From the NCBI RefSeq assembly GCF_003334765.1, contig NZ_QOWT01000068.1: 4,312 nt of DNA. The stretch is one strand, 5' to 3'. The notes below the pieces were generated by a model. It was not told the DNA's origin and searched no databases. It worked only from the letters and a program-made list of their open reading frames with translations. The translations under genes were made by a program, and so were the position numbers. This document shows positions 121 through 213 of this stretch, one piece after another. Origin of the DNA: Escherichia coli (GTDB lineage: Bacteria; Pseudomonadota; Gammaproteobacteria; Enterobacterales; Enterobacteriaceae). How positions within the stretch are numbered: position 1 is the first letter of the stretch; each line of letters opens with the position of its first letter.

Positions 121-213
121 GCGTTTCTACAAACTCTTCCTGTCGTCATATCTACAAGCCATCCCCCCACAGATACGGTAAACTAGCCTCGTTTTTGCAT
201 CAGGAAAGCAGCT

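Follow-up and report, generated by a model that had tools for sequence, protein, structure and literature searches.

In Escherichia coli the genes murB and birA follow directly on the rRNA operon rrnB. This raises the question of whether the short stretch between the last rrnB terminator, T2, and the murB start codon holds a promoter of its own, or whether the two genes depend on transcription that leaks out of the rRNA operon. Both genes are essential; knowledge of an own promoter just past rrnB T2 is useful for strain engineering and otherwise adds little beyond annotation. An earlier note on this DNA had found no convincing sigma70 promoter in the 88 nt between terminator and start codon (126-213) and had suggested that murB-birA is expressed from a weak promoter or by residual read-through from rrnB. 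We addressed the question in a stretch of 4,312 nucleotides, called the window in the following; positions are those of the window unless stated otherwise.

Layout of the locus

The window carries, in this order, the rrnB T2 terminator, murB-birA, coaA and thrU-tufB, an arrangement of the E. coli K-12 type. Its open reading frames and tRNAs are consistent with the gene order in the MG1655 record, which runs murI, rrnB (16S, tRNA-Glu, 23S, 5S), murB, birA, coaA (on the opposite strand), thrU-tyrU-glyT-thrT, tufB, secE and nusG. Positions 1-420 were matched over at least 80% of their length in 5413 of 5426 complete E. coli genomes, several of them at 100%, among these K-12 MG1655. Position 1 lies about 90 nt past rrfB.

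For comparison with published transcript data, window position x was converted to NC_000913.3 position x + 4171843, an offset based on the coordinates of murB, thrU and tufB in this record. The second source of the offset was the birA coordinates in Kim 2012. The conversion agrees with the data, since the 3' end of the murB-birA transcript then falls 2 nt past the hairpin at 2208-2227 and the thrU start 7-8 nt after TAGAAT.

The features of the locus are collected in Table 1. The first 120 positions are the distal part of the rrnB T1-rrB-T2 region (Brosius 1981; Orosz 1991; Stenum 2021), in which T2 is the last barrier before murB; the murB promoter, as opposed to this element, is DNA downstream of T2. 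The rrB small RNA is a product of read-through at T1 (Stenum 2021, PMC8144298) and was reported to bind Hfq and CsrA. In a permissive Rfam scan of 1-300 the sole match was RtT at 1-76, which was truncated at the window edge and stayed below threshold (19.2 bits, against a gathering score of 45). The T2 hairpin (92-119) folded with a dG of -19.8 kcal/mol and a z of -4.96. From the end of its T-tract to the start of the -35-like hexamer there are 35 nt, so that terminator and promoter do not overlap in E. coli; the gap is shorter in some genera.

Table 1. Features in and around the murB-birA transcription unit, with their positions in the window
Feature	Position	Strand	Basis or remark
3' part of rrB small RNA (RtT/TLR-like), between rrnB T1 and T2	1-84	+	position, PMC8144298; context, outside the promoter
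Repeat of the 5S 3' end, AACTGCCAGGCAT	69-81	+	inside the rrB part
rrnB T2 intrinsic terminator (stem arms 92-103 and 108-119, loop 104-107, T-tract 116-120)	92-120	+	fold
ACAAGCC motif, partly conserved, contains the -35-like hexamer	154-160 (-37 to -31)	+	alignment
-35-like hexamer AAGCCA, 3/6 to TTGACA, 17 bp from the -10	156-161	+	PWM scan
Block ATACGG	173-178 (-18 to -13)	+	invariant across species; putative function
-10 hexamer TAAACT	179-184	+	conservation; 6-7 nt 5' of the mapped start
Primary start of murB-birA, most likely G191 (else C190)	190-191	+	SMRT-Cappable-seq; one dataset
5'UTR, 23 nt, unstructured	191-213	+	fold of 191-270, z +0.93
Shine-Dalgarno AGGA, 8 nt before the ATG	202-205	+	leader sequence
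murB	214-1242	+	ORF, annotation; one transcription unit with birA
birA	1239-2204	+	ORF, annotation; overlaps murB by 4 nt
Hairpin between birA and coaA	2208-2227		terminator scan, minus-strand call
Mapped 3' end of the murB-birA transcript	2229	+	termination site 4174072 (NC_000913.3)

The mapped start and the promoter elements

In the SMRT-Cappable-seq data of Yan et al. 2018 (PMC6131387, Supplementary Data 1, rich-medium sheet) a forward transcript runs from 4172033 to 4174072 and spans b3972|b3973, i.e. murB and birA, in full. Its start, 4172033 (NC_000913.3), corresponds to window position 190/191 and is supported by 170 reads; 32 end at 4174072, 18 pass through and 56 end at most 50 bp downstream (PMC6131387). 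Because the method captures 5'-triphosphate ends with an about 1200-fold selectivity over processed RNA (PMC6131387), 190/191 is a primary start. It is known to within one nucleotide, since the coordinate convention is unstated and a BED-style start column would give 191. The authors used bedtools and reported a purine preference at starts (PMC6131387), and a shift by +1 makes purines of all four forward starts in the window (190, 3537, 3666 and 3947).

In M9 as well as in rich medium, murB and birA are each listed with exactly one transcriptional context (PMC6131387). The section of the rich-medium sheet that lists the murB start has 92 different forward starts, among which it stands at about the 71st percentile; in the same table thrU has 654 reads, sodA 151 and murI 121. 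The start lies 6-7 nt 3' of TAAACT, which is the spacing expected of a -10 hexamer, and well within 126-213. The view that this stretch lacks a convincing promoter does not survive this finding. The suggestion of a weak promoter held in so far as the promoter uses TAAACT, which the earlier note had listed, with a poor -35; it did not hold with respect to strength and independence, as the promoter is autonomous and moderately used in vivo. The start has been public since 2018; the promoter is already mapped, and it is ordinary. In the literature searched we found nothing specific on a named murB promoter or on murB-birA regulation.

Further data fit a single transcription unit. In an RNA-seq study of Shigella flexneri, murB (log2 -2.23) and birA (log2 -1.62) both drop under anaerobiosis (PMC4229854). 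This joint drop is in keeping with one transcription unit and hints at modulation by the promoter or by growth rate. As an observation on birA itself, Table S4 of Kim 2012 contains a very weak leaderless birA start (5 reads) at window position 1238, 1 nt before the ATG; in the SMRT-Cappable-seq data birA is found only on the murB-birA transcript.

The elements upstream of the start resemble those of a housekeeping promoter. TAAACT matches TATAAT in 4/6 positions and has all key bases of a sigma70 -10 (T-12, A-11 and T-7). At a distance of 16-18 bp the best -35 is AAGCCA with 3/6, short of what a sigma70 -35 calls for, so that the total comes to 7/12. A TGn extension of the -10 is absent, positions -15 to -13 being CGG. 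With a -35 of 3/6, a total of 7/12 and no TG at -15/-14, the sequence alone leaves the moderate activity unexplained: the promoter is weak by consensus but moderately active. We consider it very probable that 156-191 is the murB-birA promoter, of the housekeeping sigma70 type, with its start at G191 or C190.

Promoters of the extended -10 class (TRTGn-TATAAT), for example galP1, have a degenerate -35 and rely on the -10 and the bases just upstream of it; the motif of the extension is reportedly TRTGn (Burr 2000; Mitchell 2003). Like these sigma70 promoters, the murB promoter keeps T-12, A-11 and T-7 next to a poor -35, has a conserved T-17, purine -16 and G-14, and starts 7 nt past the hexamer. 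T-17, R-16 and G-14 are three of the four specified TRTGn positions, and C replaces T at -15. In contrast to TGn promoters, -15 is C in 95% of the species compared below and the defining T is missing; unlike in the TRTGn motif, A-18 and G-13 are invariant as well.

In our preferred interpretation the good -10 drives the start at G191 (or C190) despite the poor -35 and without a canonical TGn. ATACGG (-18 to -13) probably makes up in part for the weak -35, by contacts that involve sigma region 3 and the spacer. We infer this compensation from the fit of T-17, purine -16 and G-14 to TRTGn. The transcript consists of a 23-nt leader, murB and birA and ends at the hairpin shared with coaA. If the TG-less block from -18 to -13 is a functional promoter element, promoter grammar would gain a modest new entry. 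Neither a structured leader nor a riboswitch was found in 191-270 (fold z +0.93; permissive Rfam scan of 1-300).

How does this compare with a plain consensus search? The four hexamers given in the earlier note are present (TCTACA at 126-131, TATCTA at 149-154, TAAACT at 179-184 and TTGCAT at 195-200); the spacer between the first two is 17 nt, and TTGCAT lies 13 nt before the ATG at 214. It was also right that 126-213 contains no near-consensus sigma70 promoter, as our consensus scan found no site with at least 9/12 matches there. However, the empty result in these 88 nt is uninformative, since chance predicts the same and since the scan also missed the thrU promoter and T2. In the whole window 5 sites were found versus 6.3 expected from shuffles, and the strong thrU/tufB promoter (TTGCAT-17-TAGAAT, 3502-3530), whose -35 TTGCAT has 3/6 matches, was not among the hits; the T2 terminator (92-120) was missed as well, probably on account of A-T pairs by which its stem reaches into the T-tract. 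A failed consensus scan is not equal to the absence of a promoter; in this case the footprint and the published start data settle the question.

We also ranked 8570 sites with a position weight matrix (PWM), which is crude, as the matrix is an approximate one after classic compilations. By this crude measure TAAACT alone belongs to the top 0.36% of the window hexamers, the combination AAGCCA-17-TAAACT ranks 75th of 8570 sites and the thrU promoter ranks second. The earlier note had thus underrated TAAACT, and it had overlooked a second TCTACA at 151-156.

This second TCTACA, followed after 17 bp by TACGGT (174-179), could be the working promoter instead of AAGCCA/TAAACT. In the crude PWM it scores slightly higher (5.34 versus 4.72, rank 54 versus 75), which is due to its -35 matching in 4/6 positions. 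Yet its start would be expected near 186, but the mapped one lies 11-12 nt after T179, and the pair is not conserved: 19 of 77 species have G in place of the essential A at the second position of TACGGT (e.g. TGCGGT or TGGGGT), and outside Escherichia its -35 has only 2-3/6 matches. The 5-bp clustering rule of SMRT-Cappable-seq could have merged a minor start near 186 into 190/191. As the main promoter the pair was rejected for its wrong distance to the mapped start and its lack of conservation, and it is highly improbable that it takes the place of AAGCCA/TAAACT.

Two further candidates were dropped. The pair TCTACA (126)/TATCTA (149) ranks 544th of 8570 in the PWM scan, is without T-7 and lies in an unconserved region in which no start was reported. 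TTGCAT (195-200), whether taken for a -35 or for a sigma54 -12 box, is without a partner element and lies inside the mapped 5'UTR. A side observation on the same region is that TCTACAA occurs twice, at 126-132 and 151-157, i.e. 25 nt apart, with the second copy overlapping the -35 region. This repeat is confined to Escherichia and may be due to chance.

Conservation of the promoter block and its possible readers

To follow the promoter through the family, murB loci from 80 Enterobacteriaceae species (about 25 genera) were used and their upstream regions were aligned. Scoring was done on an ungapped alignment anchored on the -10, with G191 as +1, which comprised 75-77 species. In these, ATRCGGTAAACTA at -18 to -6 is 95-100% conserved except for the purine at -16. 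The top-base frequencies from -18 to -6 (A T R C G G T A A A C T A) are 1.00, 1.00, 0.76, 0.95, 0.96, 1.00, 1.00, 1.00, 0.95, 1.00, 0.99, 1.00 and 0.96; at -16, where the top base reaches 0.76, all species have a purine (A or G in 100%). The discriminator (-5 to -1) is variable (0.43-0.71); 72 of the 77 species have G at +1. As a neutral yardstick we used 51 fourfold-degenerate sites in murB codons of invariant residues from the same species, which gave a mean top-base frequency of 0.47 with none as high as 0.95. By this comparison the promoter block is under strong purifying selection.

Most species, 71, have the hexamer TAAACT, while 4 have TACACT and 2 have TAAAAT; T-12, A-11 and T-7 are kept in 77 of 77. 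Matches to TTGACA at a spacing of 16-18 bp reach at best 1/6 in 10 species, 2/6 in 43, 3/6 in 22 and 4/6 in 2; the C at -32, which is part of ACAAGCC, is conserved in 97%. Between terminator and promoter both length and sequence vary widely, and a homologous hairpin with a TTTTTGCGTT tail is found in most genera. The promoter block was kept in every genus examined, regardless of the sequence between it and the terminator. The description of the sequence in the earlier note was accurate and its conclusion wrong: the promoter is autonomous, strongly conserved and ordinary in kind.

Two observations concern the flanks of the block. Several Citrobacter species carry REP-like GC-rich palindromes (e.g. 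GCCGGATGCGGCG and CCTTATCCGGCCTAC) 60-130 nt upstream of murB, between the rrn terminator and the promoter, with the promoter block unchanged. Downstream, TTTTGCATCAGGA (193-205), a part of the murB 5'UTR, hardly varies among about 25 genera, beyond what the Shine-Dalgarno sequence needs.

The pattern of conservation could also have another cause, namely that ATRCGGTAAACTA is in addition, or mainly, an operator overlapping the -10, through which a regulator tunes murB-birA. Such a site would account for the frozen positions -18 to -13 and the C at -8: the former are as conserved as the -10 although their bases mismatch TGn, and the latter is conserved in 99% where the consensus base is A. The lower expression of murB and birA under anaerobiosis in Shigella, about 3- to 4.7-fold, would also fit a regulator. 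On inspection, however, the block has neither a dyad nor a direct repeat, and its 13 nt cover just the stretch that begins with the extended -10 region and ends with the first base of the discriminator. Patterns for CRP, CpxR and the BirA operator score at chance, and no murB regulator was found in the literature searched. We therefore regard an operator as unlikely and the promoter itself as the better explanation of the block.

In the search for specific regulator sites, the best match to a class II CRP site (TGTGA-N6-TCACA) near -41.5 has 4/10 mismatches, which 84% of the control windows equal. On visual inspection TGTCG-N6-CTACA (141-156) has its centre near -42, but only Escherichia has this sequence. 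A BirA operator was rejected, as GTAAAC resembles a bioO half-site and the second half is absent.

Another conceivable reader of the promoter is an alternative sigma factor (sigma54, sigma32, sigmaE, sigma28 or sigmaS). TTGCA at 195-199 resembles the sigma54 -12 box, and TAAACT and TACACT come near to TATACT, the -10 preferred by sigmaS. The sigma54 pattern was tested as TGGCAC-N5-TTGCW, with GG at -24 and GC at -12. Its best match, TAGCCT-N5-TTGCA, has 3 mismatches and is without the GG of -24; an equally good match occurs in 22% of other 90-nt windows, and the start would fall near 209. For sigma32, sigmaE and sigma28 the patterns have 5-7 mismatches, and 58-96% of the control windows do equally well. 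As to sigmaS, the base at -13 is G whereas sigmaS prefers C, and the murB start was recorded during rich-medium growth. A reader other than the housekeeping sigma70 is thus extremely improbable.

Read-through from rrnB

The other possibility raised by the position of murB is that murB-birA relies mainly on residual read-through of the rrnB terminators and that 126-213 contributes little. No other units of the cell are transcribed as heavily as the rRNA operons, and a leak of less than one percent could already be of consequence. Long flanks were available for 11 loci, and in each of them murB is immediately preceded by 23S-5S on the same strand, with 126-369 nt from the 5S end to the murB ATG (302 nt in K-12). 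This indicates that the adjacency of rrn and murB is ancestral within the family; the promoter was nonetheless retained throughout. T1 is leaky and its read-through feeds the rrB small RNA (PMC8144298): according to Orosz 1991, as cited there, 87% of the transcripts terminate at T1. The same source gives 100% for T2, and T1 alone cut the expression of a downstream reporter 28-fold in vivo (PMC3333854). In addition, read-through as the main source is at odds with the primary start inside 126-213 and its 170 reads, with the single transcriptional context of both genes in both media and with the strong purifying selection on the promoter block. It is, in our view, very unlikely. The read-through option of the earlier note is thus without support.

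Since a working promoter with a mapped start lies between T2 and murB, murB-birA does not need read-through from the rRNA operon. A minor contribution of rrnB read-through to murB may exist; Cappable-seq is blind to it, because RNase III processing removes the triphosphate 5' end of the pre-rRNA. In every genus examined the murB promoter lies just past an rrn terminator, but it acts as an independent module, with rrnB transcription stopped by T1 and T2. For practical work it follows that moving or replacing the rrnB terminators, or deleting rrB, must spare 150-213.

The terminators themselves vary. As compared with the dual terminator of rrnB, most other genera and about 256 of 5426 E. coli genomes, O157:H7 included, have one terminator at this place. 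In these E. coli genomes the 3' end of rrnB is without T1 and rrB, which were lost between two copies of the 5S-tail repeat, and the hairpin is a variant one. Two single-terminator genomes, O157:H7 PA20 and A22, were aligned (positions 203-377 of the loci) and are identical to K-12 from -18 to +1. Among 5402 matching E. coli genomes the 40-nt core (166-205) is identical in 4909, and one base differs in the rest.

One E. coli assembly, CRE287 (NZ_CP166757.1), departs from this picture. Here 5S is followed by an rrnE-type terminator whose T-tract leads straight into GCATCAGGAAAGCAGCTATG; nothing is left here of T1, rrB, T2 or the murB promoter, and murB is present in a single copy. The replaced stretch, at locus positions 2940-3025, corresponds to about -90 to 213 of the window. 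E. coli ATCC 11775 carries this terminator between rrnE and yjaA, where its tail reads GGGGTTTTTTGCAT|ATCAATT. By comparison with this tail, the junction in CRE287 lies in 9 nt of microhomology to the murB leader (TTTTTGCAT). If the junction is no assembly error, murB-birA in CRE287 would probably be expressed by read-through of the rrn terminator, which would speak for the possibility discussed above; it is, however, one candidate assembly among 5426. Apart from CRE287, it can be noted that TTTTTGCAT of the murB leader also ends the tail of the rrnE terminator.

Two more far-reaching interpretations can be named. In the first, the frozen TG-less sequence from -18 to -13 would be a distinct -10 extension or a regulator site, by which a promoter almost devoid of a -35 could reach moderate strength and which may tie the output of murB-birA to growth conditions. 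In the second, suggested by CRE287, rrn read-through alone would sustain the essential genes murB and birA. We consider such interpretations distinctly unlikely.

The arrangement at murB resembles the concatenation of operons by terminator-promoter overlap described for rrnB-tufB-secE-rpoBC (Brandis, Cao and Hughes 2019, PMC6735719): it lies in the same neighbourhood and has a promoter right after the strong terminator of a highly expressed operon. Unlike in the concatenated operons (PMC6735719), the terminator and the promoter of murB are separate in E. coli, and the downstream genes do not lack an own start, as that of murB-birA is mapped. In the same study murB-birA-coaA was treated as an insertion between rrnB and tufB and not as a concatenated pair (PMC6735719).

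Further downstream in the window, the SMRT-Cappable-seq table also contains minor starts inside tyrU (3666/3667, 31 reads) and thrT (3947/3948, 37 reads), with transcripts that reach the end of tufB. These would be internal tufB promoters within tRNA genes.
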